A DNA stretch of 64,000 bases from a phage. Of this stretch, positions 1 to 53,301 are shown in pieces (within the stretch, counting starts at the first letter, position 1; the number at the start of each line of letters is the position of its first letter). The stretch lies in sequence record PV467749.1; one strand, given 5' to 3'. The notes under the pieces were generated by a model. It searched no databases, was not told the DNA's origin, and saw nothing but the letters and a program-made list of their open reading frames with translations. The position numbers were made by a program, and so were the translations under genes.

Positions 1-176
1 ATGTAATTATACACATTGGCTTCTTGATAGTTAGTTCCCAGTGTAGCTTGAACATAGATTTCATTTAACTTAATAATTTTATCAGTATCTGGTAGTTTTG
101 ATGTGTTAATGGCAAATAACTTCAAAAACAGTCCATTTAAGATTGTTAGGTATTCTTCGTCGGTAATGATTCGCAT
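1..176 (-). CDS. Family A small protein (LGTNYQ motif), 3' end truncated by window edge
   Basis: Manual minus-strand translation: MRIITDEEYLTILNGLFLK...ATLGTNYQEANVYNY; ATG at 174-176; same family as following genes. Confidence 0.45.
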   Translation of the reverse strand, partial: MRIITDEEYLTILNGLFLKLFAINTSKLPDTDKIIKLNEIYVQATLGTNYQEANVYNY

Positions 177-388
177 TTGCATTGGATAAACCTTTTTAGT
201 TCTTTGATGTAATCATTAATATTGCATTCTTGATAGTTAGTCCCTAGGGTAGCTTGAACATAGATTTCACTCATTAGAATATTTTTTTCTTCATCAGGTA
301 AATCTGTGGTCTTTGCTATATACAATTTTAGAATTAAACTACTTAATAGTTCGTGGTATTCACTTGGTGAAAGGATTTTCATTTGCAT
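146..388 (-). CDS. Family A small protein (LGTNYQ motif)
   Basis: Track ORF 80 aa; LGTNYQE motif; tandem overlapping array. Confidence 0.5.
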   Translation of the reverse strand: MQMKILSPSEYHELLSSLILKLYIAKTTDLPDEEKNILMSEIYVQATLGTNYQECNINDYIKELKRFIQCKCESLPTKNT

Positions 389-594
389 GTTCTCAGTACA
401 GATTCTTTAAGTTCATCGATGTAGTCCTCAACGAATTGCTCTTGGAAGTTAGTTCCAACATATAAAAGAACTCTTAAATCTGCTCTAAGTAACTCTTTTT
501 CATCATCATCTATATCAGACAATGTTATGTTTAAGAATTTACTTGTATTAAAGATTAACAATTCTGTTTGTTCACTGTGGCTTAAAATTTTCAT
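379..594 (-). CDS. Family A small protein
   Basis: Track ORF 71 aa; VGTNFQE motif. Confidence 0.5.
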   Translation of the reverse strand: MKILSHSEQTELLIFNTSKFLNITLSDIDDDEKELLRADLRVLLYVGTNFQEQFVEDYIDELKESVLRTCK

Positions 595-802
595 AATCTC
601 TTTTTGCTTTCCTCGCCAAAAGGTACATATACGATTCTTCGTATTGTGCTTGGTAGTTTGTGTTTAAGAGTCGAAACAACTTCTGTTCTGCTAGAACGAG
701 TTGCTTATCTTCATAACAACGATAGCGTATCAACTTTTTGTATTCGATGTTGATTACATCCATTACTATAAGCCCATGTTCATCATCTGTCAAGTGTTTC
801 AT
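572..802 (-). CDS. Family A small protein
   Basis: Track ORF 76 aa; LNTNYQA motif. Confidence 0.5.
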   Translation of the reverse strand: MKHLTDDEHGLIVMDVINIEYKKLIRYRCYEDKQLVLAEQKLFRLLNTNYQAQYEESYMYLLARKAKRDYENFKPQ

Positions 803-1041
803 GCATTTTTTCTTTTTCTTATATGTTTAGTTAAAAGGTATATTAGTTTTCTGATGTATTCTTCTTGGTAGTTTGTTCCTAGGAGTGCAAGAAGCTTTGC
901 TTCAACTAGAGCTAATTGACGTTCTTCAAATGTGTGTTCCAGTATGTACTTTGGGTTTGATTTTTTAGAAATTGCACTATTAGTTTTCATTACAATCTTA
1001 TGATATTCATTAACTGTTAGGATTTTTAAATTCTTGAGCAT
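799..1041 (-). CDS. Family A small protein
   Basis: Track ORF 80 aa; LGTNYQEE motif. Confidence 0.5.
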   Translation of the reverse strand: MLKNLKILTVNEYHKIVMKTNSAISKKSNPKYILEHTFEERQLALVEAKLLALLGTNYQEEYIRKLIYLLTKHIRKRKNA

Positions 1042-1267
1042 GTACCTTTTCCTTTATAGAGAATTTAAGATATCGAAGCATACTTTCAATGTAATACTCT
1101 TGTCTGTCAGTTCCAAGAAAGTACATGAGTTGAATGTATAAAACTTCTGCACTCCTTTCGGCAGGTGACTTGTTTGTGTCGTTTGGAAGTTGATTTGTAA
1201 GTTTTCTGGATTTAATTAATCGTTCTTTTAACTCATCGTCTGTTAAGTATTTCATTTCATTTTGCAT
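1010..1267 (-). CDS. Family A small protein (LGTDRQ variant)
   Basis: Track ORF 85 aa; near-identical to the 1477 copy. Confidence 0.5.
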   Translation of the reverse strand: MQNEMKYLTDDELKERLIKSRKLTNQLPNDTNKSPAERSAEVLYIQLMYFLGTDRQEYYIESMLRYLKFSIKEKVHAQEFKNPNS

Positions 1268-1487
1268 TTACTTTTTCCATAATACTCATTACAAGATGTT
1301 CAATCATATTTTGAACCATAAATTCTTGTTTATCAGTTCCAAGAACGTATTGTAGCTTCTGAAACAATACATTCGCAGACATTTCATATATTGATTGATT
1401 TGGAACGAACTTAAGAGTAATGTTATTGGCTTTTAACATCTTCTCTTGAAATTCTTCATTCGTTAAGTATATCATTTCACTTTGCAT
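1257..1487 (-). CDS. Family A small protein (LGTDKQ variant)
   Basis: Track ORF 76 aa. Confidence 0.5.
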   Translation of the reverse strand: MQSEMIYLTNEEFQEKMLKANNITLKFVPNQSIYEMSANVLFQKLQYVLGTDKQEFMVQNMIEHLVMSIMEKVNAK

Positions 1488-1713
1488 TTATTTTTTCCAT
1501 AATAGTGATTTTAAGATATTTAATTATACGTTCAACGTGATACTCTTGCCTATCAGTTCCAAGAAGGTATGGTAATGACTGGAATAAAACTTCTGCACTC
1601 CTTTCCGCTGGGGTTTGGTTTGGGTTGTGTGGAAGATATTTTGTAAGTTTTTTGGATTTATCTAGTCTTTCTGTTAACTCATCATGTGTTAAGTATATCA
1701 TTTCATTTTGCAT
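1477..1713 (-). CDS. Family A small protein (LGTDRQ variant)
   Basis: Track ORF 78 aa; MQNEMIYLT N-terminus shared with neighbours. Confidence 0.5.
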   Translation of the reverse strand: MQNEMIYLTHDELTERLDKSKKLTKYLPHNPNQTPAERSAEVLFQSLPYLLGTDRQEYHVERIIKYLKITIMEKINAK

Positions 1714-1940
1714 TTAATGTTCCTTACGTAAATTGTCTGGATTAAAAGTGAAATCCATTTTTCTACATATTGGTTTTGATACTGTGTACCTAAGAGGAAC
1801 TGCATTTTAAACTCTGCTTCAAGTTCATATCTCTTTTCTATAGAAAAGCTTAAATGACCATATTCCTTATCGTATCGTCTCATAGCTTCCCCAATTCTAT
1901 CAAATCTTTCTGCTAATCTGATGTTATTCACAATATTCAT
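1698..1940 (-). CDS. Family A small protein (LGTQYQ variant)
   Basis: Track ORF 80 aa. Confidence 0.45.
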   Translation of the reverse strand: MNIVNNIRLAERFDRIGEAMRRYDKEYGHLSFSIEKRYELEAEFKMQFLLGTQYQNQYVEKWISLLIQTIYVRNIKCKMK

Positions 1941-2194
1941 CGATCAGTACACCTCAGTGGTTGGGTCATTTGATAAAAGTACAGCTTACCTTTGATTTCC
2001 AATAGTAACTCCGCGATTAAGCGATTTACTTCTGGCTCTTGATAGTTTGTTCCTAAGAATACACCCATCTTTAACTCACGCATCATAATCATTTTCTTAC
2101 TGTGTTGAATTTCTGGGTTGTGATAGATTGTATTACGTTTGTGTGTAATTTTTGTCATACGCTCGGTATATTCATCTTTACTTAAATTGATCAT
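1937..2194 (-). CDS. Family A small protein
   Basis: Track ORF 85 aa; LGTNYQEP. Confidence 0.5.
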   Translation of the reverse strand: MINLSKDEYTERMTKITHKRNTIYHNPEIQHSKKMIMMRELKMGVFLGTNYQEPEVNRLIAELLLEIKGKLYFYQMTQPLRCTDR

Positions 2195-2427
2195 TTTTTA
2201 TTCTCCAAAGCATCGCATTTATTTTCGATACAATTCATTAGTTCTCTAAGATAGTTTTTTACCTTACCTGCCTGATAGTTCGTCCCCAGGAAGTTGCATA
2301 ACTCTGCTTCTATTATTTTGATTCTTCTGTTATCAGGTTTCAATTTTTTGTTATTGAAGATTTGAATCCTTATATCCCTTGATGCATTTAAACGTTTTTG
2401 ATAATCATGGTAAGATAAATGAATCAT
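2191..2427 (-). CDS. Family A small protein
   Basis: Track ORF 78 aa; LGTNYQAG. Confidence 0.5.
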   Translation of the reverse strand: MIHLSYHDYQKRLNASRDIRIQIFNNKKLKPDNRRIKIIEAELCNFLGTNYQAGKVKNYLRELMNCIENKCDALENKK

Positions 2428-2642
2428 TTACTTTGTATCTCTCTCTTGAGGGCATCAATTAACAACAGTACAGCATTCTCTTGATAGTTTGTTCCTAAGA
2501 CTGAAAGCATCTTAATCTCATTTACTACAATCAACTTCTTTGAGCGTTCAATAATGTTACTATTATAAACGGCGTTACGTGCTGGATAAGTTTTTGCAAG
2601 ACGATCATAATATTCATCTTTACTTAAATTAATCATTTGCAT
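2424..2642 (-). CDS. Family A small protein
   Basis: Track ORF 72 aa; LGTNYQEN. Confidence 0.5.
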   Translation of the reverse strand: MQMINLSKDEYYDRLAKTYPARNAVYNSNIIERSKKLIVVNEIKMLSVLGTNYQENAVLLLIDALKREIQSK

Positions 2643-2851
2643 TTACTTTTGACCTCTTTCAGTAGAGCATCAACCCATATGTCTACATACATTTGTTGAT
2701 AGTTTGTGTCTAATAGTGCACCTACATATAGTTCAGCTACCATTGCGTGCTTTAGGTCAACAGGGATGCTCTTATCAGATTGAATCTTTACCCTTCTGCT
2801 TCCACATGTTTTCAGAAGCTTAACATATTCGTAACCTATTAATTTTCTCAT
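2633..2851 (-). CDS. Family A small protein
   Basis: Track ORF 72 aa; LDTNYQQM. Confidence 0.5.
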   Translation of the reverse strand: MRKLIGYEYVKLLKTCGSRRVKIQSDKSIPVDLKHAMVAELYVGALLDTNYQQMYVDIWVDALLKEVKSKCK

Positions 2852-3063
2852 TCTCTGGATAACACCTTGTTGCGTAAGGCACTTAACAATACGTCAGTGT
2901 AGATGTTTTGATAGTTTGTTCCTACGAAAGCACCCAACTTCATTTCAGCTATTATAACACATTTGTCCTCTTGTGCAATAGACTTGTCTAAAGAAATACT
3001 AACAACTTTCCTTCTTATAGCTTGTAACCTCCAATGATACTGAAACTCATTTAGTGTTATCAT
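2848..3063 (-). CDS. Family A small protein
   Basis: Track ORF 71 aa; VGTNYQNI. Confidence 0.5.
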   Translation of the reverse strand: MITLNEFQYHWRLQAIRRKVVSISLDKSIAQEDKCVIIAEMKLGAFVGTNYQNIYTDVLLSALRNKVLSRE

Positions 3064-3298
3064 TATCTCGTCTCCATATCTCGGTTCTAATGTGTTGACA
3101 TTGTGCTTCGATGAACATATCTATTGATTTGGCAATTGCGTTTTTATCTGTGCCAGTCATCAGTACAAGCATCTCGGCCTCACAGTGAAGTAAACGCATG
3201 ATATCATAGGGTAATATTCCAGATACCGTGTCATAGTGTTTCTGTGCCAGTGTCTGTAATAGTTTACAATACATTTTGTGATTTAGTCTGTGTCGCAT
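3047..3298 (-). CDS. Family A-like small protein (divergent, TGTDKN)
   Basis: Track ORF 83 aa; position and size fit the array, motif degenerate. Confidence 0.4.
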   Translation of the reverse strand: MRHRLNHKMYCKLLQTLAQKHYDTVSGILPYDIMRLLHCEAEMLVLMTGTDKNAIAKSIDMFIEAQCQHIRTEIWRRDNDNTK

Positions 3299-3558
3299 TG
3301 TTTATTCCATTCTTTTTTTTTGGCCTTGATGGTTTTATATTGGATTTGGTTTCTTAATGCTGATAAGTATCGTTGAATGAACAGATCTTGATAGTTTGTT
3401 CCAATGAATTTCATAAGATAAAGTTCACCGTTGATAACATCCACTTCAGGTGCACCATATAAGGCATTGTTTTTTCTAAGGGCATGGATTAAAGAGAATA
3501 GGGCAGTTTGATACTCAACTCCTGATAAAATCTTCATGTTTTGTGAGCAAATAATCAT
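3283..3558 (-). CDS. Family A small protein
   Basis: Track ORF 91 aa; IGTNYQDL. Confidence 0.5.
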   Translation of the reverse strand: MIICSQNMKILSGVEYQTALFSLIHALRKNNALYGAPEVDVINGELYLMKFIGTNYQDLFIQRYLSALRNQIQYKTIKAKKKEWNKQCDTD

Positions 3559-3772
3559 CTAGTTTATCCTGTATAACATTCGTTAATTGTTCGATATATT
3601 CTGTGCAAAACTTATCTTGATATTGAGTCCCCATAAAGTACAGCAACCATAGCTCATTAACTTTAGCTCGCATTTGGTTCCATGTAAGGCTGGGGTCATC
3701 GTAGACTATCCTTGCTATAGGGGTTAGTTTACGGACTATAGTTTCATATTCATCTAGTGTTAAGTGTTTCAT
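3515..3772 (-). CDS. Family A small protein
   Basis: Track ORF 85 aa; MGTQYQDK. Confidence 0.5.
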   Translation of the reverse strand: MKHLTLDEYETIVRKLTPIARIVYDDPSLTWNQMRAKVNELWLLYFMGTQYQDKFCTEYIEQLTNVIQDKLDDYLLTKHEDFIRS

Positions 3773-3987
3773 TTACATTTGTCCCTTATTAGATCAGTGA
3801 GGGCAACTATGTGTGCAACAACATACTCTTCCTGAAAGTTCGTCCCCAGTACAGCCATCATGCGTATATCGGTGGTGTTTATCCTGTGTTCCCTTACACA
3901 TAAACCTTCTGTGTGAGGAAGTGTAAAATATTTGTTTATTGCAGCAACGATAATTTTATTCTTCTCGGAGTTACTTAAATGTTTCAT
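3769..3987 (-). CDS. Family A small protein
   Basis: Track ORF 72 aa; LGTNFQEE. Confidence 0.5.
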   Translation of the reverse strand: MKHLSNSEKNKIIVAAINKYFTLPHTEGLCVREHRINTTDIRMMAVLGTNFQEEYVVAHIVALTDLIRDKCK

Positions 3988-4196
3988 AGTTTACTCCTGA
4001 TATAATTCTGAAGTGCAATTAAGTATTCCCCTACATAATACACCTGAAAGTCTGTATCAAGGAATGCACCCATAAGTAAATCTTTTTCTAATACCCTTGA
4101 TAAGTTAAGGTCTGCATTTGAAAGGTATATAAGTAAGATTTCACCCTGTGCGGAATTGAAACGTTTCTTATATTCTTCTGGTGTTAAAAAAATCAT
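3984..4196 (-). CDS. Family A small protein
   Basis: Track ORF 70 aa; LDTDFQVY. Confidence 0.5.
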   Translation of the reverse strand: MIFLTPEEYKKRFNSAQGEILLIYLSNADLNLSRVLEKDLLMGAFLDTDFQVYYVGEYLIALQNYIRSKL

Positions 4197-4408
4197 AATT
4201 TGCTCCTGATATATTTCTCAAGAGATGACAAATACTTTTCCTCATAATACTTCTGATAGTCTGTTCCTAAGAATGCACCCAAAAGTATTTCATTTTCCAA
4301 TACCTCGGCTAAGTTTAAATCAGAAGTCTCTTCGTATATTATGAGGATTTCAAGTTGTCTGGCAGCGATGCGTTCAGTATATTGATATGAGTTTTCTATA
4401 ATAATCAT
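4193..4408 (-). CDS. Family A small protein
   Basis: Track ORF 71 aa; LGTDYQKY; close paralog of the 3984 copy. Confidence 0.5.
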   Translation of the reverse strand: MIIIENSYQYTERIAARQLEILIIYEETSDLNLAEVLENEILLGAFLGTDYQKYYEEKYLSSLEKYIRSKL

Positions 4409-4614
4409 AATTTACTCTTTATATCTTGAATTAAAAATCGAATCCATTCTTCAACATAATCTTCCTGATGGTTTGTGTTCAGTACAGCCAACATGCGGAT
4501 CTCTGCTCTTGCAACTTCAATTTCAGTTTTAGGAAGGTCTTTGCTGATATCCACCATTAAGTCCATGTATTTCAAGATAAGACCGTATGATTGGGTTCGT
4601 GTTATAGTTTTCAT
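4405..4614 (-). CDS. Family A small protein
   Basis: Track ORF 69 aa; LNTNHQED. Confidence 0.5.
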   Translation of the reverse strand: MKTITRTQSYGLILKYMDLMVDISKDLPKTEIEVARAEIRMLAVLNTNHQEDYVEEWIRFLIQDIKSKL

Positions 4615-4811
4615 TGTTTCCTCGTGGACAATATTTTATTTTTCAATGTATCCATATATTGAATCACCCATCTTTCCTGATAGTTAGTTCCCAAAGTAAT
4701 CAAAAGGTATAACTCCATTCGTTCTACGTGTGTGTCTGTATTATAAATCTTTGTGAAGTTTTTACGTAACAGTTCTTGATAATCTTCTTTATTTAAAATA
4801 CGCATTTTCAT
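4611..4811 (-). CDS. Family A small protein
   Basis: Track ORF 66 aa; LGTNYQER. Confidence 0.5.
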   Translation of the reverse strand: MKMRILNKEDYQELLRKNFTKIYNTDTHVERMELYLLITLGTNYQERWVIQYMDTLKNKILSTRKQ

Positions 4812-5005
4812 AGTCTACCTTTTATGTCCCTTCGTAATTCTTGTAAGTATAGTTCGATATACTTTTCTTGATAGTTAGTTCCTATGAAAAGTTTCATAAC
4901 CAATTCACGCTTATATGCAATACCACGGATATGTGACATATGTAGGATATATGCCATGTTGGATATGAGTGTGTGGTTGTGCTCTTCTTGAGTTAAAATA
5001 CGCAT
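4808..5005 (-). CDS. Family A small protein (first gene of array)
   Basis: Track ORF 65 aa; IGTNYQEK; preceded on minus strand by TTGACT-N16-TATATT and GGAG RBS (~5012-5075). Confidence 0.5.
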   Translation of the reverse strand: MRILTQEEHNHTLISNMAYILHMSHIRGIAYKRELVMKLFIGTNYQEKYIELYLQELRRDIKGRL

Positions 5006-24540: not shown

Positions 24541-24569
24541 TTGACATTGCCCCCAGTTTATAAGATAAT
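24541..24569 (+). promoter_or_regulatory. Plus-strand promoter candidate
   Basis: TTGACA-17nt-GATAAT. Confidence 0.4.
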
Positions 24570-24666
24570 GATTCCAGATTCAGAAAAATCTAACACCAGA
24601 TACTGCGGGGAAACTATCCCCACGCGGTAGGGGAACTATTGGAAAAAACAAAATAAAATTTTGATT

Positions 24667-24794
24667 TAGCCGTCTATACTTCCAGACGTGTAACCATCTA
24701 GCCGTTTAGCCGTCCAAACGTCTAGCCATCCAGCCATCCAGAAATCTAGCCGTTTAGCCGTCTAGATGGATAGCCATCTTTACTTCCAGACTTC
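24667..24794. repeat. Tandem degenerate 8-bp repeat array (consensus TAGCCRTC, ~16 units)
   Basis: Strict 8-bp phase: tagccgtc tatacttc cagacgtg taaccatc tagccgtt tagccgtc caaacgtc tagccatc cagccatc cagaaatc tagccgtt tagccgtc tagatgga tagccatc ... Confidence 0.6.
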
Positions 24795-25875
24795 TGGAGG
24801 GCTAGACATATCTACGCCCAAAATCCATCCAGGGTAACTACACCCAAAATCCGTCAGTACTATACCATAGATCTATCTTTTGAAAGGGAGTATTCAGTAC
24901 TGCCATCATAGCCCTCACTATGTTACCCTAGGAGGATGAAGACTATCATGTAGTACTGAATACTGTTAGAGGGAATCCACCAGCTTGTGCTGGTGGCATA
25001 ATGCTTTAGATTAAAATCAGTACTGACACCATTCTGTTAATATCAGTACTGTTATTACGATTTTCATATGAGGTTCAAAAAGATGTACCACCACAGGAGG
25101 AACTATCTTTTCTGTACTGTCTCACGACAGGAGGTAGAGTAAATGAATTGTTCGCAGCAACTCATCTCTCTATGTAGAACATTATACAGTACTGAATCAT
25201 AATGTCAATAGCTTTCTTTCATTATTCAGTACTGATATTCTTGAGAACTACCCGACTACAAACATCATTATATCCCACAAATCATAAACGTCCCAACGTA
25301 AATTTCAACTTTCGAAGAACCAACTTTTATTTCATAGGTACTCCAAAATTTTTAGGATCGAGATTTAGGATGGAGTACTAACCAACTTTTTGCTGGAGCC
25401 TCAAGGGGTAATTGAATTTTACCCCGAAGGGTAAAAGGGTAATTGAAATTAAGGTGAAAGTAATAATTCAGTACTAATCATTGCGTGATTACTTTTGATT
25501 ACATTTGATGTAATTTGCAAAATGGAAAAGGAGCTTGGAAACTACAAAGTACGGCAGACTTCCTCTGCCTACTTAGTGACATATCGACACCTTCAGTACT
25601 GAATACTTTTAGGGCAGTACTGAATCCTTCCCTAGCATTCTTGAGTAATCTTGTCTATAATAATCAGTACTGAATCATATATAATCATTCTGTGATTCTA
25701 CGGTGCTCATATAAATGTTTATATATGATTACTTATGACTACATATGATTACGGGGTTTAGCCTGGGGAGAATCCTAGTGATCGCATTTGTCCAGGCTGA
25801 ATTTTAACAATTCTTCTAATTGTTAAAGCCTGTCCAATGCTTTCCCTGCGGAGCTTCCCCTGTCTATATGTTGAA

Positions 25876-26082
25876 TTACTTCCTATATATAAGCATTAAC
25901 ATATAGTAGTACTGATTATGCTGTACATTCTCTTTAATATTATAAGGGTCTATAGCAATCTCGGTACATCTGTTAAATGCATATCTATTAAATGCCAGTA
26001 CTATTATAGATCTAATCCATGCTTGGTCAGTCGGTGGTAGTTTACTTATATAGTACTCTTTATAGTTTTTTATGTTCTGCAT
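25876..26082 (-). CDS. Family B small protein
   Basis: Track ORF 68 aa; N-terminal EYY/EFY and hydrophobic C-terminus LMLIYRK. Confidence 0.45.
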   Translation of the reverse strand: MQNIKNYKEYYISKLPPTDQAWIRSIIVLAFNRYAFNRCTEIAIDPYNIKENVQHNQYYYMLMLIYRK

Positions 26083-26093
26083 AGTATACCTTA

Positions 26094-26285
26094 TTATTTC
26101 AAAGTACCATATAGTACTCTTAATAGGAAGTAGTACGTATTAGAGATATCATTAGTAGTTAAAACAATCTTAGTACACATATTAAATTCGTATTGAGTCA
26201 TTGCCAGGGGGATTAAATTGTTAACCCATGCTTGTTCGTTTTCTTTGAGTTTACTTATATAGAAATCTTTATGTTCTTTATTCAT
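26094..26285 (-). CDS. Family B small protein
   Basis: Track ORF 63 aa; MNKEHKDFYISKL. Confidence 0.45.
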   Translation of the reverse strand: MNKEHKDFYISKLKENEQAWVNNLIPLAMTQYEFNMCTKIVLTTNDISNTYYFLLRVLYGTLK

Positions 26286-26487
26286 ATAGGAATAGTATAC
26301 CTATGATGCCGGAGTACATATTAGTACTGTTATTATTGTCGTTTGCGTTTAAGGTCATTTGAATACAATTATTGTAGCATAATCTGCCGAAATATGTATC
26401 AGTACTTAAAGGTGCTGTAGTCCTTAGAAACATTTGTTCTGTGGGGCTGAGGTGTTTGGAGTAGAATTCTTTATGTTCTTTATTCAT
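26278..26487 (-). CDS. Family B small protein
   Basis: Track ORF 69 aa; close paralog of the 26861 copy. Confidence 0.5.
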   Translation of the reverse strand: MNKEHKEFYSKHLSPTEQMFLRTTAPLSTDTYFGRLCYNNCIQMTLNANDNNNSTNMYSGIIGILFLYE

Positions 26488-26492
26488 ATTAG

Positions 26493-26678
26493 TTAGTGTC
26501 TGTATATAAGTAATAGTAAGAATACGTACTGCACCTGTTCATCTTTAGTATTGAGTACTGTACGTATTGCGTCATGGAACAAGAATATAGTACTTGGGTC
26601 ATTAGAATTTAAGGGGTTTACGGGGACGGCGTGTTTGTAGTTCCCTTTAACAAATTGTATATAGTATTCTCTATGCAT
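26493..26678 (-). CDS. Family B small protein
   Basis: Track ORF 61 aa. Confidence 0.45.
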   Translation of the reverse strand: MHREYYIQFVKGNYKHAVPVNPLNSNDPSTIFLFHDAIRTVLNTKDEQVQYVFLLLLIYRH

Positions 26679-26679
26679 A

Positions 26680-26868
26680 TCAGTACCTATATATTAGGGC
26701 GAGAATGTAGTACAGTTTATATGTATTATAATCTGGGTTGATAGCACATAGTGTGTGGTAGTGGAATTGTTTGGTATTTTTCTTATCCTTGATATCTATT
26801 GGGATTTGTGGTATAAGCATTTGGGAGTTTAGATCGAGATGGCTTAAGTAGAATTCTTTGTTATTCAT
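26680..26868 (-). CDS. Family B small protein
   Basis: Track ORF 62 aa. Confidence 0.45.
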   Translation of the reverse strand: MNNKEFYLSHLDLNSQMLIPQIPIDIKDKKNTKQFHYHTLCAINPDYNTYKLYYILALIYRY

Positions 26869-27067
26869 AGAAGAATATTAGTCCCATTACGCCTGAGTAT
26901 TGAATATTTTTGTTATTGTTTTCTAAAGCTTCTAGAGTAATACGTATACAATTATTAAAGCAATCTCTGGCGTGTGGTGTATCTAAACGTAAAGGTGATA
27001 CACTCCTTAGAAACATTTGTTCTGATGCACTGAGGTGTTTGGTGTAAAATTCTTTCTGTTCGTTCAT
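26861..27067 (-). CDS. Family B small protein
   Basis: Track ORF 68 aa; MNEQKEFYTKHLSASEQMFLR. Confidence 0.5.
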   Translation of the reverse strand: MNEQKEFYTKHLSASEQMFLRSVSPLRLDTPHARDCFNNCIRITLEALENNNKNIQYSGVMGLIFFYE

Positions 27068-27077
27068 ATTGGCCTCT

Positions 27078-27266
27078 TTAGTACACGAAAGCTAGGTACA
27101 GTACATGATACAGTACTCGATGATAGCTATCAAAATCTAGTATACATGCTTTAGTGCACATAGTAAAGTACACTTTATCGTTTTGAGCATTGATACCGCG
27201 AGGTTTATCTAATAGATTAGTACTGAGGTACATTGGGAAATATTTTGTGTAGTATTCTTTATGCAT
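27078..27266 (-). CDS. Family B small protein
   Basis: Track ORF trimmed to MHKEYYTKYF. Confidence 0.45.
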   Translation of the reverse strand: MHKEYYTKYFPMYLSTNLLDKPRGINAQNDKVYFTMCTKACILDFDSYHRVLYHVLYLAFVY

Positions 27267-27267
27267 A

Positions 27268-27450
27268 TTAGTACCTGAATATAAGTAGGATAGTGTTATA
27301 TAATTGGTCATAGCTACTACTATTTTCTATACTGCGTTCTATGCAATTATTGAATCCCAGTACTGCCAAATCGTTATCCAGGGGGACTTTATATCTGGCG
27401 TAGTGTTCAAATATACTGGGGAGAAATTGTGTGTAGTATTCTTTGTGCAT
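27268..27450 (-). CDS. Family B small protein
   Basis: Track ORF 60 aa; MHKEYYTQFL. Confidence 0.45.
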   Translation of the reverse strand: MHKEYYTQFLPSIFEHYARYKVPLDNDLAVLGFNNCIERSIENSSSYDQLYNTILLIFRY

Positions 27451-27451
27451 A

Positions 27452-27643
27452 TTAGTACTTATATATTAGTAAAAGGATGTGATACAGTACTCTATTATAG
27501 TCCTCAATATATATCGAGGATTTAGTGCACTGAATGAAGTAGTCTTTTTCGTAGTCTTTTTCTATACTCAATTGTTTTGTTGGTACAAGGTGTTGGAGAT
27601 ACATTGGGAGTTTCTCTATGTAGTATTCTTTGTGGTTATTCAT
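27452..27643 (-). CDS. Family B small protein
   Basis: Track ORF 63 aa. Confidence 0.45.
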   Translation of the reverse strand: MNNHKEYYIEKLPMYLQHLVPTKQLSIEKDYEKDYFIQCTKSSIYIEDYNRVLYHILLLIYKY

Positions 27644-27651
27644 ATTATGTG

Positions 27652-27825
27652 TTATTTCGTGAAAACAAGGGTTAGTACTGCATAGTACAAGTCATACGTA
27701 TCTTTAGGGTTAATAGCACCTTTAATACATTCTTTCATTACTTCATTATAGATAATTTTAGTACTGAATGTATTGGATGTTACTATATCGGAATTAAGGT
27801 ACGAGAGGTAGAATTCTTTATACAT
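27652..27825 (-). CDS. Family B small protein
   Basis: Track ORF trimmed to MYKEFYLSYL. Confidence 0.4.
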   Translation of the reverse strand: MYKEFYLSYLNSDIVTSNTFSTKIIYNEVMKECIKGAINPKDTYDLYYAVLTLVFTK

Positions 27826-28477
27826 AGTTTGAAATATACGTAATGAGGTGATGAAATTTCTTATCAGTACTGATAAGTTCCTGTACATGTTTTGTTAGTT
27901 TGTACGCGTTTTTATAGAGTCCTGGATTATCGATTACAGTACTGTACATGAATTCTTCTTCCTCGGATAATTCTTTGTGTTCTAGTTCTTTGAGGAATTG
28001 CAGTACTGTATCAGTTTCGTTAGTACGTTGCTTTTGGAAGAAGTGCATGTTATCGTGTATTTTTTCTGAACCCATGCAGTACATATCGCCGATTTGGAAT
28101 TGTGCAGTACTGATATCATGGGTGCTATTACAATTCCCGAAGAAGTATACATTCCCGAAAGATAGAATTATAGTGCACGGGATATTATCCATGTGTATAT
28201 AGATAGATGCATTCTTTAGTGCTTTTGTGCTGGTATTAGTACTCAATACTTTTAAATCAGTATTATAGATATTAATAAAAGCAAGAGCTATATTATTTTT
28301 CTTCAAGTACGATTTGAGGTTCTTAGATACGAGAACATTTCTGGATTTTTTCTTTTTATTTCGTTTCTTTAGTACACACGGGTCGTAAGTATATGCTGGT
28401 GTAAAAGATTCTGCTTGAATACTGTTGAGGTATTTAAAGTGCTTAAGGTATTGTTTGCTGTGTGCATTAAGTTTCAT
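27818..28477 (-). CDS. Hypothetical protein (219 aa) embedded in the family B array
   Basis: Track ORF; Lys-rich N-half; CNST motif and size loosely recall the 48973..49623 gene. Confidence 0.5.
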   Translation of the reverse strand: MKLNAHSKQYLKHFKYLNSIQAESFTPAYTYDPCVLKKRNKKKKSRNVLVSKNLKSYLKKNNIALAFINIYNTDLKVLSTNTSTKALKNASIYIHMDNIPCTIILSFGNVYFFGNCNSTHDISTAQFQIGDMYCMGSEKIHDNMHFFQKQRTNETDTVLQFLKELEHKELSEEEEFMYSTVIDNPGLYKNAYKLTKHVQELISTDKKFHHLITYISNYV

Positions 28478-28487
28478 TTGGTTTCCT

Positions 28488-28667
28488 TTATACAGATGCG
28501 AGAGCGAGGATTTCCCTGAAGGGATTATCTTTTGTTAGTGCGTGATGAATGCAGCTATTGAGATTAATATTTTTAGTACTATTAGTTGCCAGGTTGTAGT
28601 ACTTCACGAAGGTGTCGTACATGAAACGGTCTTTAATGCTTATGTGTTCTATATAGTATTCTTGCAT
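28488..28667 (-). CDS. Family B small protein (59 aa, not in track)
   Basis: Manual translation MQEYYIEHISIKDRFMYDTFVKYYNLATNSTKNINLNSCIHHALTKDNPFREILALASV. Confidence 0.4.
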   Translation of the reverse strand: MQEYYIEHISIKDRFMYDTFVKYYNLATNSTKNINLNSCIHHALTKDNPFREILALASV

Positions 28668-28675
28668 ATTATTCC

Positions 28676-28864
28676 TTACATAGAGATGAGTTTCAGTACA
28701 TCAATATACATATAACGTTCAGATGACAGTACACGGGTAGTGATAATCTCAATCGATATATTTTTAATTCCATGTGCAGATGATTGATGGTGCTGAATAA
28801 ATGAGTTGTGCATACTTTGTTCTATGTGGTTTAGTTTATTGAAGTAGTACTCAAAAGTGTTCAT
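28676..28864 (-). CDS. Family B small protein
   Basis: Track ORF 62 aa; C-terminal VLKLISM. Confidence 0.45.
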   Translation of the reverse strand: MNTFEYYFNKLNHIEQSMHNSFIQHHQSSAHGIKNISIEIITTRVLSSERYMYIDVLKLISM

Positions 28865-28871
28865 GTCTACC

Positions 28872-29051
28872 TTAGATTAAGATTAGTTTAAGTACTTCTC
28901 TGTACGTGTACTTTTCGTTTTGTGCTTCTACTGTACACGAGAGTAGATAACGTTTTTTATCTCTTTTGTTCCCGACTGTGTAGTACCTTTGGAATTTATT
29001 ATAGTTGTATCTATCTTTGTGCTGGAGGTTATAGATATAGAATTCTTGCAT
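28872..29051 (-). CDS. Family B small protein (59 aa, not in track)
   Basis: Manual translation MQEFYIYNLQHKDRYNYNKFQRYYTVGNKRDKKRYLLSCTVEAQNEKYTYREVLKLILI. Confidence 0.4.
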   Translation of the reverse strand: MQEFYIYNLQHKDRYNYNKFQRYYTVGNKRDKKRYLLSCTVEAQNEKYTYREVLKLILI

Positions 29052-29059
29052 AGAGTACC

Positions 29060-29245
29060 TTAGATTGCTATCAGTTTGAGTACTTCAATATATGTGCGGT
29101 ACTCTGCTTTAATTAAATTTGTACACACTGTAAGGGAATTTCTTTGTATAAGTTTATTGCCGCTTTTATACGCATTTCTCCACACATAGAGATGAGATCT
29201 TTCAGGCATAGATAGTTTATTTGTATAGTACTCAAATGTGTTCAT
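29060..29245 (-). CDS. Family B small protein
   Basis: Track ORF 61 aa; C-terminal EVLKLIAI. Confidence 0.45.
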   Translation of the reverse strand: MNTFEYYTNKLSMPERSHLYVWRNAYKSGNKLIQRNSLTVCTNLIKAEYRTYIEVLKLIAI

Positions 29246-29253
29246 ATATTACC

Positions 29254-29436
29254 TCAAATAGAGATTAGTTTAAGTACTTCTCTGTATGTGTACTTTTCGT
29301 TTTGTGCATCTCTTGTGCTTGTATATAGGTATCCTCGACGATATTTGTTGCTCCCGTTCTTGTAGTTGAATTCGAACTTATTGTAGATGAATCTATCGCC
29401 AGGCTGTAATTTACTTAAGTACAATTCAATGTTCAT
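29254..29436 (-). CDS. Family B small protein
   Basis: Track ORF trimmed to MNIELYLSKL. Confidence 0.45.
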   Translation of the reverse strand: MNIELYLSKLQPGDRFIYNKFEFNYKNGSNKYRRGYLYTSTRDAQNEKYTYREVLKLISI

Positions 29437-29446
29437 AGTATTCTCT

Positions 29447-29632
29447 TTACATATCAATAAGTTTCAGTACTGCTCTGTACGTGTACTTAGTTGTTAGTGC
29501 TTCTTTTATAGCAATACAGAAGTAATGTTGTTTGTCTCTTATACTACCGCGTTTGTAGTACCATACATTGGAGTTGTGGGTGTACTTGTCCCTGTCGGAT
29601 AGATTTTGGTAATAGTATAATATATGATTCAT
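29447..29632 (-). CDS. Family B small protein
   Basis: Track ORF 61 aa; C-terminal AVLKLIDM. Confidence 0.45.
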   Translation of the reverse strand: MNHILYYYQNLSDRDKYTHNSNVWYYKRGSIRDKQHYFCIAIKEALTTKYTYRAVLKLIDM

Positions 29633-29832
29633 GGTAATGTAATTAGCCTTATTATGTTAAAGTACTCGGTCCCTGGTACACCTTGTAGAATATTATCAAC
29701 TACATTTTCTTGGTGCAGGATTAATACATTCGGTGCGGTTCTTTTAAGGTTTTTTAAAGTACTGTATTCTTGTTTAAGGATGAACTGTACATCTTTAGGG
29801 AGAATATCTAAGTAGTACTGGTGTATGTTCAT
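29629..29832 (-). CDS. Family B small protein
   Basis: Track ORF trimmed to MNIHQYYLDILP. Confidence 0.45.
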   Translation of the reverse strand: MNIHQYYLDILPKDVQFILKQEYSTLKNLKRTAPNVLILHQENVVDNILQGVPGTEYFNIIRLITLP

Positions 29833-29852
29833 AGTTTTCATATAGTACTCTT

Positions 29853-30038
29853 TTAGAACTTAAAGATGAGGTTCATGATAGATAAGTACTTAGTTTCAGG
29901 AAATTGATGTTCTATTGCATAACGTGTCTCCAGTCTGAAGTCAAATTTATAAAAGGGACTATTCATATCCATAGGTTCATTGGGAAATGAATCTCTGTAT
30001 TGTTTGTGCAGCTTACTACAGTAGAATTCTTTATACAT
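29853..30038 (-). CDS. Family B small protein
   Basis: Track ORF 61 aa. Confidence 0.45.
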   Translation of the reverse strand: MYKEFYCSKLHKQYRDSFPNEPMDMNSPFYKFDFRLETRYAIEHQFPETKYLSIMNLIFKF

Positions 30039-30039
30039 A

Positions 30040-30252
30040 TTAGTGCTCGATTAAAAGGGTTAGGATGTAATAGTATTGCATACTTTCTACCCCTTGTACA
30101 GCATTTCTTATTTTATTATTCCTGTACGAGTTCAAGAGTTTAGGACAATGTTTGAAGTTTATATAATTATTTTGTGTATACAGTAGGCTTTCTCGTAGAC
30201 CTTTTGTTGGTAGTGCATCAATGTAGTACTGTTCAATGTTCATAGTGTTCAT
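30040..30252 (-). CDS. Family B small protein
   Basis: Track ORF 70 aa; MNTMNIEQYYIDALP. Confidence 0.45.
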   Translation of the reverse strand: MNTMNIEQYYIDALPTKGLRESLLYTQNNYINFKHCPKLLNSYRNNKIRNAVQGVESMQYYYILTLLIEH

Positions 30253-30476
30253 AGAGCTACCAGTACTAAGATTTTTGATAATTGTTTATTGCTATCCCCG
30301 CAGATGTTGCTGTGTAAAATACTCACTACAAGGGTATCAAGTGCATTGTTCAGCATAAGGTTACATCCAGTACTGTTATGTGTTTTTAGCTCAATTAGCC
30401 ACGAACTATCCGCGAGAAACTTCGCGTACTCTAGTTCATTTAGAGTATTAATGTAGTACTTAAGTGTAGTTGTCAT
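30249..30476 (-). CDS. Family B-like small protein (first gene of array)
   Basis: Track ORF 75 aa; YYINTL and hydrophobic C-terminus. Confidence 0.4.
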   Translation of the reverse strand: MTTTLKYYINTLNELEYAKFLADSSWLIELKTHNSTGCNLMLNNALDTLVVSILHSNICGDSNKQLSKILVLVAL

Positions 30477-30587
30477 GTACAGTTCTCCTTATATTCCTTA
30501 TATTCCTTCTATAGTACATCAGTACTGAAAGGTTGTCAAGGGTTTTCTTTTTGGGGTAAATATGATATAATGAATAAAGGAGGAAAT

Positions 30588-50861: not shown

Positions 50862-51233
50862 TTATAACATACGTTTTTTACGAATAGTATTGTGGATATT
50901 TTTTAAGTAGTTCACACCTTTACACAACCCATAAAATACACCAGCACATACACCAAATGCAGGTATCATACATGCAAACATCGTTATCAATTCCCACATC
51001 TCCATGCCATCTTGATTCGGTCCAAGGTCAAAGATAACAACCGAAACCAAACCTGTGATACTTAGCATATAATATGCCATGAAGATAATAAAAGAAACAA
51101 TACCAACATCAGAGCGAACTGAATTTAGCATATTATATACTGGGGTTACACAGAAGTAATACAATAACCAAATCAAAGAACCTAAACTAAACACAATAAT
51201 AGTAATGATCGAAAATATTTCACGATAACTCAT
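50862..51233 (-). CDS. Family D small polytopic membrane protein
   Basis: Track ORF 123 aa; 3-4 hydrophobic segments; basic C-terminal tail. Confidence 0.55.
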   Translation of the reverse strand: MSYREIFSIITIIVFSLGSLIWLLYYFCVTPVYNMLNSVRSDVGIVSFIIFMAYYMLSITGLVSVVIFDLGPNQDGMEMWELITMFACMIPAFGVCAGVFYGLCKGVNYLKNIHNTIRKKRML

Positions 51234-51234
51234 T

Positions 51235-51597
51235 TTAGTTCCTCTTACCTAAACGCTCATGGATTTCGGAAATCTTATTATACATCCATGCCAGCAACTC
51301 AACGGATGCACAGAGAATAACCACACACAGTGTTAGTGAACATACCATAATACCAAATGTTATAAAATTCGAACTCGATGTTAATAATGCAACCAGCATT
51401 AGAATAAAACCAAAATTGAATGCTGTACTCAACACAGTATATGCTGGACTATATCTCCTTTGTATTACATCATATATATTTGATAATGGTCGCTTATGGA
51501 AGTACTTCCCAATGCACACGAATGCATTCAGTGAGAAGATAAATGTATACGCCATTACCATTAATTGACCAATAAAAGATAATTCAATATTATTCAT
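51235..51597 (-). CDS. Family D small membrane protein
   Basis: Track ORF 120 aa; hydrophobic segments. Confidence 0.55.
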   Translation of the reverse strand: MNNIELSFIGQLMVMAYTFIFSLNAFVCIGKYFHKRPLSNIYDVIQRRYSPAYTVLSTAFNFGFILMLVALLTSSSNFITFGIMVCSLTLCVVILCASVELLAWMYNKISEIHERLGKRN

Positions 51598-51598
51598 G

Positions 51599-51970
51599 TT
51601 ATCCTCGTTTGCGGTATTTGATGCTTTGGTGCATTCTCTGAAAATGTGGAACTAATACATATTGTACGGTTTGCCAAATTACCATCAGATTATGGACAGC
51701 ACCACCGAGTAGACCAAACACTACACAGATAATTGCCAGTACTGGATCACCATCTACCATACCCCATTTGAATATATGTAAAATCCATACAGTGATAAGT
51801 AGTAATAAACTAATCCAATACGTAGTAAAAAATCCTGCATGTAATTCATAGTCATCAGCAATTTCATCGTATACGGTTTCCAAGAAGGATACACAGAAGA
51901 ACTTGCCAATAATAATAATTGTACTAATAAACAACATAGCAGTTAATATAATAAGTGCAATTTCCATCAC
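51599..51970 (-). CDS. Family D small membrane protein
   Basis: Track ORF 123 aa. Confidence 0.55.
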   Translation of the reverse strand: MMEIALIILTAMLFISTIIIIGKFFCVSFLETVYDEIADDYELHAGFFTTYWISLLLLITVWILHIFKWGMVDGDPVLAIICVVFGLLGGAVHNLMVIWQTVQYVLVPHFQRMHQSIKYRKRG

Positions 51971-52281
51971 ATCCCTCGTTTACGCTTTTGATTGCGTCTA
52001 AATTCGGTTAGCCCACGACTAATCGGTGGCATCAGACTACATAAAAAAATAACAGTTGTTGGTAATAACATGAAGTCAATCATTGCTGTATTAACAGGTG
52101 GATCACATACCAAATAATACAAACAAGTAATACTAATTATGGTTGACCCAATAAAAGGAATACAAAATTCTTTTATCTGTTTTTCAACATAATCAAACAT
52201 CTTCAATACAAATAAAAATCCAACCCAACACATAATAAAATAGAATGAATAAAGCGTGTAAATCAATGTTACGATATCCAT
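51967..52281 (-). CDS. Family D small membrane protein
   Basis: Track ORF 104 aa. Confidence 0.55.
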   Translation of the reverse strand: MDIVTLIYTLYSFYFIMCWVGFLFVLKMFDYVEKQIKEFCIPFIGSTIISITCLYYLVCDPPVNTAMIDFMLLPTTVIFLCSLMPPISRGLTEFRRNQKRKRGM

Positions 52282-52619
52282 TAGTACCTCGCATCAGGAA
52301 CTTTAGCACGTAATTTATGAACGACTGGGAACAACAACAAACTTACATATGCAATAGTTGAACCCCAATAGAATACTAATATAATTGGTTCACCATTGGA
52401 ACGGAACCCTCTACTAATCATTGAGTAGTGAATAATAGGCATGAACATCGCCATACCAAACCATGCGTGTAATTTTAATTGCAGCATGTTATCAGAGATG
52501 AATACTGAAATTGGTCGTTTGAAGAACCACATCAGAAAGTAGAATCCAGCACTAAGGATATAGTACATAGTACTAACTTTCATATACCACGGCAGTAAGT
52601 GTAAAAAATATTCCATCAT
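52281..52619 (-). CDS. Family D small membrane protein
   Basis: Track ORF 112 aa; C-terminal KLRAKVPDARY. Confidence 0.55.
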   Translation of the reverse strand: MMEYFLHLLPWYMKVSTMYYILSAGFYFLMWFFKRPISVFISDNMLQLKLHAWFGMAMFMPIIHYSMISRGFRSNGEPIILVFYWGSTIAYVSLLLFPVVHKLRAKVPDARY

Positions 52620-52963
52620 TCCTCCGGTATCTTGTTTCGAAGTTCAATCATAACACAACAAAGTTTAATGGTCAAGTAAAAAACTACACATATCATACCC
52701 AATGTACCGTAAACTGCGGAGAATGCTGGCAGTACCTTTCCTGTGAGTGTTGCTACAATACATGCTATCAATGTTGATGCAAACAACGATTGATTAATGA
52801 AAGAATTCATAAAATCTTCACCATTACGCTTATAGAATTGTCGTTTAAAATACCATCCTAGAAACATAACTACCCAAAATGTTACATAACCTGTTAGAAT
52901 AATCCCTGCAATTGAATGTGCAACAGAACTACTCTTTAAAAACTCAAGATAAGATTCAAACAT
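52616..52963 (-). CDS. Family D small membrane protein
   Basis: Track ORF 115 aa; C-terminal ELRNKIPEE. Confidence 0.55.
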   Translation of the reverse strand: MFESYLEFLKSSSVAHSIAGIILTGYVTFWVVMFLGWYFKRQFYKRNGEDFMNSFINQSLFASTLIACIVATLTGKVLPAFSAVYGTLGMICVVFYLTIKLCCVMIELRNKIPEE

Positions 52964-53301
52964 TAGAAGTCCCCACGAATTTTTGCTCTACCATTAATGA
53001 TGAGATTAAACAAGTATATCAGCACCCAAATTAGTAATCCAAGGAATACAATATATTGTGATATTGAGTTCAACTGTGGATTAGCACAATAAATTAAGTG
53101 TGCGATAAGACCAACAATTGCAAACATACCTTGGATAATAGTGAAAAGAAGTAGTGAAATGTTTCCATCTGGATACAGTTTGAAAACGATTTTCTTTTTA
53201 AAATACCATAGTACTACAACTAGTGCATGATAAAAGAAAAAACCAAACAGATAAATCAAAGTAATACTAAGCATTGTATCTGAATTAAAAAACTCAAGCA
53301 T
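52963..53301 (-). CDS. Family D small membrane protein
   Basis: Track ORF 112 aa. Confidence 0.55.
   Translation of the reverse strand: MLEFFNSDTMLSITLIYLFGFFFYHALVVVLWYFKKKIVFKLYPDGNISLLLFTIIQGMFAIVGLIAHLIYCANPQLNSISQYIVFLGLLIWVLIYLFNLIINGRAKIRGDF

Follow-up and report, generated by a model that had tools for sequence, protein, structure and literature searches.

In sequence record PV467749.1, a phage genome, we analysed a stretch of 64,000 nucleotides, hereafter referred to as the window, in which positions 25876-30476 are occupied by a tandem array of small genes that we named family B. The array is composed of 20 small open reading frames (ORFs) on the minus strand and of one ORF of 219 amino acids (aa), which the ORF list of the window places within the array, as an earlier note made from the bare sequence had described (Table 1). 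Three of the listed ORFs were over-extended by the longest-ORF rule, and their starts were reset to family-consistent positions, which are those annotated in phage WPEC5: 27078-27266 (62 aa), 27652-27825 (57 aa) and 29254-29436 (60 aa). Because of these three corrections the small proteins range from 57 to 75 aa, and not from 59 to 75 aa as first reported. The two members of exactly 59 aa, which had been found by manual translation, are genuine: that at 28488-28667 has an orthologue in ten of ten related genomes and that at 28872-29051 in five of ten, and both are annotated in WPEC5 and in other records. The 21 genes fill 4,533 of the 4,601 bp of the array, with intergenic gaps of -8 to +11 nt, and a Shine-Dalgarno-like core is found before 13 of them. 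In the subfamily described below as B1, the last sense codons AGG-TAC (Arg-Tyr) provide the AGG of the ribosome-binding site of the next gene; therefore, the C-terminal conservation may be due in part to dual coding.

The 4.6-kb array region matches 34 phage records, every one from a jumbo phage of Escherichia or Salmonella. These phages measure 310-386 kb and fall in the PBECO4/121Q group (genus Asteriusvirus). The closest record is WPEC5, with 99.3% identity over 100% of the region. The genes under the match in the related records are all annotated as hypothetical protein, and several annotations omit family B members; that of phAPEC6, for instance, lists 8 small genes of 18. Family B is unmentioned in the published accounts of fEgEco12, Sharanji, UE-S1, phAPEC6 and CBB and in two reviews of jumbo phages.

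The claim of about twenty tandem minus-strand paralogues is borne out by sequence comparison. In an all-against-all search with phmmer, 68 of the 380 ordered pairs of members gave E<1e-3, compared with none in five shuffled sets, and these controls, together with the profile searches, show a conservation that goes beyond composition. The members can be divided into three subfamilies. B1 comprises ten genes at 25876-27825 and the gene at 29853-30038; B2 comprises the six genes at 28488-29632, which end in ..VLKLISI; and B3 comprises the genes at 29629-29841, 30040-30252 and 30249-30476. With the sequences of the window alone, the link between B1 and B2 is modest (hhalign E 7e-5). Deeper profiles were made from 164 unique relatives, taken from eleven genomes and from database matches, and their full-length alignment with hhalign gave E-values of 2.9e-7 (93% probability) for B1-B2, 3.4e-9 for B1-B3 and 9.4e-6 for B2-B3. 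As judged from these profiles, all 20 small proteins are members of one superfamily, a grouping that is new from the present analysis. Eleven of the 20 members (B1 and B1-like) match phrog_11711, whose function is unassigned in PHROG, with a best E-value of 2e-27. The nine B2 and B3 members match no PHROG, Pfam or NCBIfam model, and profile searches of family B against the known families of Pfam, NCBIfam and the Protein Data Bank (PDB) gave nothing. A tandem repeat at the DNA level was rejected as an explanation, as Tandem Repeats Finder reported no array with a period of ~190 bp and a single pair of paralogues reaches 72% DNA identity.

Both sequence motifs from which the family had been recognized were assessed. 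The N-terminal motif holds in a looser form than proposed: the strict version, [KH]-E-[FY]-Y, is present in 9 of the 20 members and a relaxed version, x-E-[FYL]-Y, in 15, and only the second aromatic residue, a Tyr, is invariant, being found in 49 of 49 non-redundant relatives. The hydrophobic C-terminal motif is conserved as described, and reads Y-x-x-[IV]-L-x-L-I.

The structure of one B1 member, encoded at 27455-27643, was predicted with AlphaFold2 using an alignment of 61 sequences. The model, with a predicted local distance difference test score (pLDDT) of 90.9 and a predicted template modelling score (pTM) of 0.75, can be described as a compact four-helix monomer, whose helices consist of residues 3-9, 14-17, 30-45 and 49-61. 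An independent model in BFVD of a relative with 32% identity superposes on it with a TM-score of 0.79-0.83. A fold search found no structural neighbour in the PDB or BFVD apart from family members. Among the 49 non-redundant members, conservation is seen at positions 4-8, 12, 17, 36, 40, 43-44, 53, 56-57, 59-61 and 63, and those in the two long helices (36, 40, 43, 44 and 53, 56, 57, 59, 60) have an i, i+3/4 spacing. Residues 13-35 and 45-52 are near-maximally variable. In the model, the conserved hydrophobic residues of the N-terminal, central and C-terminal regions are located on helix faces and look like a hydrophobic core.

The array was rebuilt in ten related genomes and its genes were sorted into orthologue sets. 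The pooled ratio of non-synonymous to synonymous substitution rates (dN/dS) of the small genes is 0.34 against 121Q, 0.39 against slurp01, 0.40 against SD-15_S21 and 0.40 against E9.1, calculated from 75-104 synonymous and 113-179 non-synonymous changes, with about four times more non-synonymous sites. The dN/dS values of three flanking orthologues are lower (0.08, 0.13 and 0.20). These codon comparisons clearly indicate that family B consists of real genes under purifying selection, which is weaker than that acting on the flanking orthologues.

The content of the array differs among these genomes. The number of copies goes from 15 in Salmonella phage SD-15_S21 to 21 in slurp01 and E9.1, and the 28 orthologue groups, 13 of which are common to all ten genomes, form a mosaic of presence and absence. 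Member 15 is a relocated paralogue, as its nearest relatives in other genomes are found on the opposite side of the 219-aa gene. With tandem paralogues that differ in copy number and content between close relatives, family B is a lineage-specific expansion. Separately, slurp01 has an extra 71-aa ORF just past the end of the array (2024-2239 of its locus, L006), which contains an internal triple repeat (DSVLISIDKIAQECTEMCVN three times) and does not belong to family B.

A profile search of 5.8 billion proteins gave 42 clusters, and an exhaustive HMMER pass over 1.84 billion representatives gave 31 matches, all of which, apart from one artefact, are proteins of ~60 aa. The exception, P0046 (486 aa, 8 matching stretches), was considered as a fused array and was rejected as a low-complexity tandem-repeat artefact. 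The matches with a named or traced source come from Asteriusvirus phages or from contigs of ~350 kb, and a tblastn search with one more divergent match found only Escherichia and Salmonella jumbo phages. As far as these databases extend, family B is restricted to Asteriusvirus-type phages. The layout of the region is also conserved, with RCC1-like genes followed by divergent small genes, a gene of ~220 aa, further small genes and an ORF-poor gap; it is shared by the diverged phage JNE01 and by a relative from metagenomic data, in which the 219-aa homologue has 65% identity. Several family B members and 219-aa homologues (P0008, P0067, P0082 and P0084) are assigned in the databases to Escherichia coli assemblies; the contigs concerned, of 350-359 kb, are whole jumbo-phage genomes inside bacterial isolate assemblies.

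The array has the layout of an operon. The 94-bp gap before its first gene holds a sigma-70-type promoter, TTGACA-N17-TACTAT, followed by AAGGAG 8 nt ahead of the ATG. The -35 and -10 elements and the Shine-Dalgarno sequence are conserved in 11 of 11 aligned genomes, and in the diverged JNE01 the -10 element is TACAAT. A promoter of the T4 late type (TATAAATA) was also looked for, and none is present in or near the array.

The array lies at the edge of the direct terminal repeat (DTR). PhageTerm analysis and restriction digests located the ends of the fEgEco12 genome, with a DTR of 20,993 bp (PMC13070987), and bases 1-1498 of fEgEco12 align to window positions 25573-24084. Since its mapped end aligns to 25573, the length of its DTR places the repeat in the window at about 5100-25573 (~20.5 kb). 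The whole block from 30476 down to 146 has a single direction of transcription. The window has 13 perfect (12/12) sigma-70 consensus promoters, 12 of them in the DTR and all on the strand of the array, with none on the plus strand. The promoters of the DTR have the form TTGACA-N16/17-TATAAT, and most share an extended consensus, aaaaGTATTGACAaagtat..cAGTACTGTATAATagtttacatcaaGGGGAG, which looks from its sequence like a duplicated promoter cassette. In the related phage CBB, clusters of RpoD-like promoters lie over short ORFs of hypothetical proteins and extend into the terminal repeat; the authors suspected these ORFs to be early takeover genes (PMC5259590). At the other side of the DTR, beginning ~100 bp past its edge, there is another set of small genes, family A (146-5005, minus strand), which comprises 22 genes in tandem, whose products of 65-91 aa have the motif LGTNYQE. 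The DTR is thus bracketed by two different small-gene arrays, which adjoin its opposite edges. Kinship between families A and B was considered and rejected (hhalign E 0.16, one aligned column).

The ORF-poor gap of 1.3 kb at 24563-25876 has a repeat of its own. An 8-bp unit (TAGCCGTC and variants) is repeated about 12 times at 24667-24765, ~800-900 bp inside the boundary of the terminal repeat and between strong promoters on both strands; to judge by its sequence, it could be an iteron-like or packaging-related element.

Table 1 Features of the family B array and its borders in the window.
Feature	Position	Strand	Basis or remark
Promoter TTGACA-N17-TACTAT (sigma-70-type), then AAGGAG	30511-30539	-	consensus scan; conserved in 11 aligned genomes
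Member 1, 75 aa, B3, first operon gene	30249-30476	-	orthologue in 10/10 genomes; dN/dS 0.43-0.54
Member 2, 70 aa, B3	30040-30252	-	phmmer/profile grouping
Member 3, 61 aa, B1-like amid B3 genes	29853-30038	-	B1 profile match E 7e-10, though left out of profile
Member 4, 70 aa, B3	29629-29841	-	sequence grouping
Member 5, 61 aa, B2, C-terminus ..AVLKLIDM	29447-29632	-	sequence grouping
Member 6, 60 aa, B2, start moved from TTG of 67-aa ORF	29254-29436	-	WPEC5 annotation and family
Member 7, 61 aa, B2	29060-29245	-	weak cross-match to B1 profile, E 0.007
Member 8, 59 aa, B2	28872-29051	-	orthologue in 5/10 genomes
Member 9, 62 aa, B2	28676-28864	-	sequence grouping, orthologue sets
Member 10, 59 aa, B2	28488-28667	-	orthologue in 10/10 genomes; dN/dS 0.39-0.53
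Embedded 219-aa gene, phrog_29152	27818-28477	-	parts B2/B3 from B1; dN/dS 0.43-0.50
Member 11, 57 aa (start corrected), B1	27652-27825	-	WPEC5 annotation and family
Member 12, 63 aa, B1, protein modelled	27452-27643	-	AlphaFold2 pLDDT 90.9
Member 13, 60 aa, B1	27268-27450	-	dN/dS 0-0.02
Member 14, 62 aa (start corrected), B1	27078-27266	-	WPEC5 annotation and family
Member 15, 68 aa, B1	26861-27067	-	close paralogue of member 18, 72% DNA identity
Member 16, 62 aa, B1	26680-26868	-	sequence grouping
Member 17, 61 aa, B1	26493-26678	-	sequence grouping
Member 18, 69 aa, B1	26278-26487	-	sequence grouping
Member 19, 63 aa, B1	26094-26285	-	present only in the window/WPEC5/fEgEco12 lineage
Member 20, 68 aa, B1, last operon gene	25876-26082	-	sequence grouping, orthologue sets
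DTR start	25553-25573	-	25573 is base 1 of fEgEco12; weak terminator-like hairpin 25569-25553

The 219-aa protein matches phrog_29152 (E 3e-113), a PHROG without assigned function. Its gene is always located at the boundary between B2 and B1, in the same place of the array in every relative, and it is as narrowly distributed as the small genes, with 23 clusters found. The AlphaFold2 model of this protein was unusable (pLDDT 36.7). Whether the 219-aa gene could belong to family B, enlarged by an insertion or extended at the N-terminus, was also considered; profile comparisons with HMM and hhalign gave only E-values of 0.0013-0.016 over 28-39 C-terminal columns with ~3% probability, and this relationship was rejected as unproven. 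The four-helix pattern of the secondary structure in the C-terminal part of the protein is suggestive only.

Given the conserved core, the variable surface and the turnover of members, the most likely function of family B is that of a lineage-specific, birth-and-death family of binders. The region is a single operon of an Asteriusvirus jumbo coliphage, and it encodes 20 diverged paralogues of a soluble four-helix protein of ~60 aa, together with one unrelated 219-aa protein. The host-type sigma-70 promoter before the first gene would most likely drive the operon early in infection, and translation would be coupled from gene to gene, since the reading frames are closely spaced or overlap. The conserved helix faces look like a hydrophobic core, high variability is seen in the second helix, in the long loop and on the exposed faces, and the array gains and loses members between closely related phages. 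During takeover the small binders would target proteins or defences of the host, with a specificity that differs somewhat from one paralogue to the next. From these features we infer early expression and a role directed at the host, and we give a probability of roughly 45% to the reading of family B as an early-expressed, lineage-specific expansion of small host-interaction effectors. A more specific version of it is doubtful but can be formulated: family B may be a binder library, in which a scaffold of ~60 residues has been diversified into at least 20 co-expressed variants, each neutralising a different host factor or defence, with birth-and-death reshuffling at the DTR junction and with family A playing the same role at the other junction.

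Several points weigh against effectors directed at the host. No known anti-defence or takeover protein resembles the family B fold, so that the argument for a host-interaction role is drawn solely from the context and the pattern of evolution. The array stops 303 bp short of the terminal repeat (25876 versus 25573) and is not within it, and its promoter is a consensus match only. The dN/dS of ~0.37 indicates constraint and not positive selection, and the ratios of 1 or above seen in a few members are based on very few substitutions. Furthermore, small proteins can escape detection by mass spectrometry of virions, although a protein of 4.66 kDa was detected in the study of phAPEC6. In favour of the effector reading, that study found 62 virion proteins, which include the neighbouring RCC1-like proteins gp549 and gp551 and no product of the annotated array genes gp540c-gp548c.

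The RCC1-like genes are the neighbours of family B. The plus strand at 30570-50825 carries 16 RCC1-like (WD40_RLD) paralogues in tandem, with lengths of 358-449 aa. The same cassette, composed of a hairpin (GCCAGTACT..AGTACTGGC), a T-run, GATTAAATATAGTATAAT and AAAGGAGG, precedes at least seven of them. The counterparts of this array in 121Q and SD-15_S21 are shorter and in part fragmented. Family B could be thought of as a set of partners, chaperones or adaptors of RCC1-like beta-propeller virion proteins, the two arrays expanding together. They are adjacent and divergent in every genome, the most distant relatives included, and their counts (RCC1-like/family B) shift together, from 16/20 in the window to 11/18 in phAPEC6, ~12/16 in 121Q and ~9-10/15 in SD-15_S21. 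We consider such a partnership unlikely, however, as the co-variation comes from four genomes and the genes are neither paired one to one nor interleaved, but form separate divergent blocks of 16 and 20. Family B has one sigma-70-type promoter, whereas a separate terminator hairpin, with AAATATAGTATAAT and AAAGGAGG after it, belongs to each of at least seven RCC1-like genes, and no family B member was found in the virion proteome of phAPEC6 that contains gp549 and gp551. Beyond the RCC1-like genes there is a third tandem set on the minus strand (50862-53301), which consists of seven closely abutting genes of 104-123 aa; the corresponding block of 121Q and SD-15_S21 is labelled hypothetical.

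The region is also rich in a palindrome, AGTACT, which occurs 274 times in the whole window compared with 21.5 expected from base composition (12.7-fold) and is densest at 6000-30000. The runner-up palindromic hexamer is 3.6-fold enriched, and many others have no occurrence. A longer form, CAGTACTG, is found 61 times compared with 1.04 in dinucleotide shuffles. The palindrome abuts the -10 element of predicted early promoters (cAGTACTG directly followed by TATAAT), and it is also found in -35 flanks (AAAAAGTACTTGCA), in promoter spacers including that of the array's own promoter, in terminator stems between RCC1-like genes and in coding sequence. Four copies are located in the 219-aa gene, three of them read as the Ser-Thr codons AGT-ACT. 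A literature search turned up nothing relevant to this excess, and no explanation was found. Family B could be made of small DNA-binding or transcription-modulating proteins, possibly recognizing AGTACT. In favour of this, five of the six B2 members are basic, with isoelectric points (pI) of 9.4-9.6, the over-represented palindrome sits in promoter spacers, and the expansion of ~35 zinc-ribbon copies in phage G was proposed to comprise transcription factors or DNA-binding proteins (PMC7824862). Nevertheless, B1 members are neutral to acidic (pI 5.5-8.7), nothing ties the family B proteins to AGTACT, and searches of Pfam, NCBIfam, PDB sequences and folds gave no match of family B to a helix-turn-helix or other DNA-binding family, so that we regard a DNA-binding role as quite improbable.

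The earlier note had proposed that the hydrophobic C-terminus could be a membrane anchor. Family B would then consist of small tail-anchored or single-pass inner-membrane proteins, acting for example in superinfection exclusion or lysis control. The last 8-12 residues are indeed hydrophobic and conserved, and over 11 residues the Kyte-Doolittle mean goes up to 2.0-2.25 in a few B1 members. The highest mean over 19 residues in any member is 1.13, however, which is below the conventional transmembrane threshold of ~1.6; stretches that lack charged and strongly polar residues reach 12 positions at most, and most members have a Lys or Arg within the motif itself (e.g. EVLKLISI and LLIYRY). The Kyte-Doolittle scan found in no member a bilayer-spanning segment of 18-20 hydrophobic residues, and AlphaFold2 packs the C-terminal segment, as helix 49-61, into the compact monomer (pLDDT 90.9). 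From the model, we infer that the hydrophobic C-terminus is a helix of the core and not a membrane anchor, and a membrane role is very improbable. Finally, the view that family B is non-functional, being made of decaying duplicates or chance ORFs of repeated AT-rich DNA, is largely refuted: gene callers often skip members (8 of 18 are listed in phAPEC6), members are freely lost and gained, and dN/dS is above that of flanking genes, but the pooled dN/dS is 0.34-0.40, no frame disruption was detected among the members in ten genomes, start contexts are conserved, the proteins are conserved while the DNA identity of paralogues is mostly low, and the fold is predicted with confidence (pLDDT 90.9).

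The reading of family B as host-interaction effectors can be compared with known systems. The host-takeover module of phage SPO1 comprises mostly small proteins, is located at a terminally redundant genome end, and has operons that combine good ribosome-binding sites with strong early promoters of the host type (PMC6873191). Family B is likewise a cluster of small proteins at a terminal redundancy. It has the packing of an operon and its own predicted host-type promoter, and the DTR holds 12 perfect sigma-70 consensus promoters. However, the SPO1 genes are mostly unrelated to each other, whereas family B has 20 paralogues of one fold, and, unlike clusters of the SPO1 or T5 type, its array is separated from the repeat by 303 bp. 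The two show no similarity in sequence or structure. Bacillus phage G has ~35 zinc-ribbon copies, a lineage-specific expansion whose function has only been guessed (PMC7824862). In both cases one small domain has been amplified to tens of copies in a single lineage of jumbo phages. In contrast to the zinc ribbons, family B is predicted to be all-helical and lacks a metal-binding Cys/His pattern, and its copies are contiguous in one operon with turnover of copy number between close relatives. In eukaryotic viruses, the multigene families (MGF) of African swine fever virus (ASFV) and the terminal host-range genes and gene 'accordions' of poxviruses are tandem paralogues beside the terminal repeats of large linear dsDNA genomes, with a copy number that varies between isolates and a link to host interaction. 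Family B resembles them in genome architecture only, as the viruses and hosts are unrelated and its proteins are far smaller.

The sequences of family B were already public under the label of hypothetical proteins, and a PHROG covers part of the family; the present analysis links all members into a superfamily, which has a predicted fold without known relatives and a notable position at the edge of the DTR. Some 80% of the genes in 350-kb coliphages of this kind lack a known function, 21 of them in this operon. Several coliphages of the Asteriusvirus type are under consideration for therapy. With its single soluble, probably early and fast-turnover fold, family B can be targeted in a defined way by screens for toxicity, by pull-downs and by deletions. 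The different small-gene arrays at both inner edges of the terminal repeat may inform how such expansions arise and, if the members are inhibitors of host factors or defences, family B would provide many new small inhibitors built on one scaffold.

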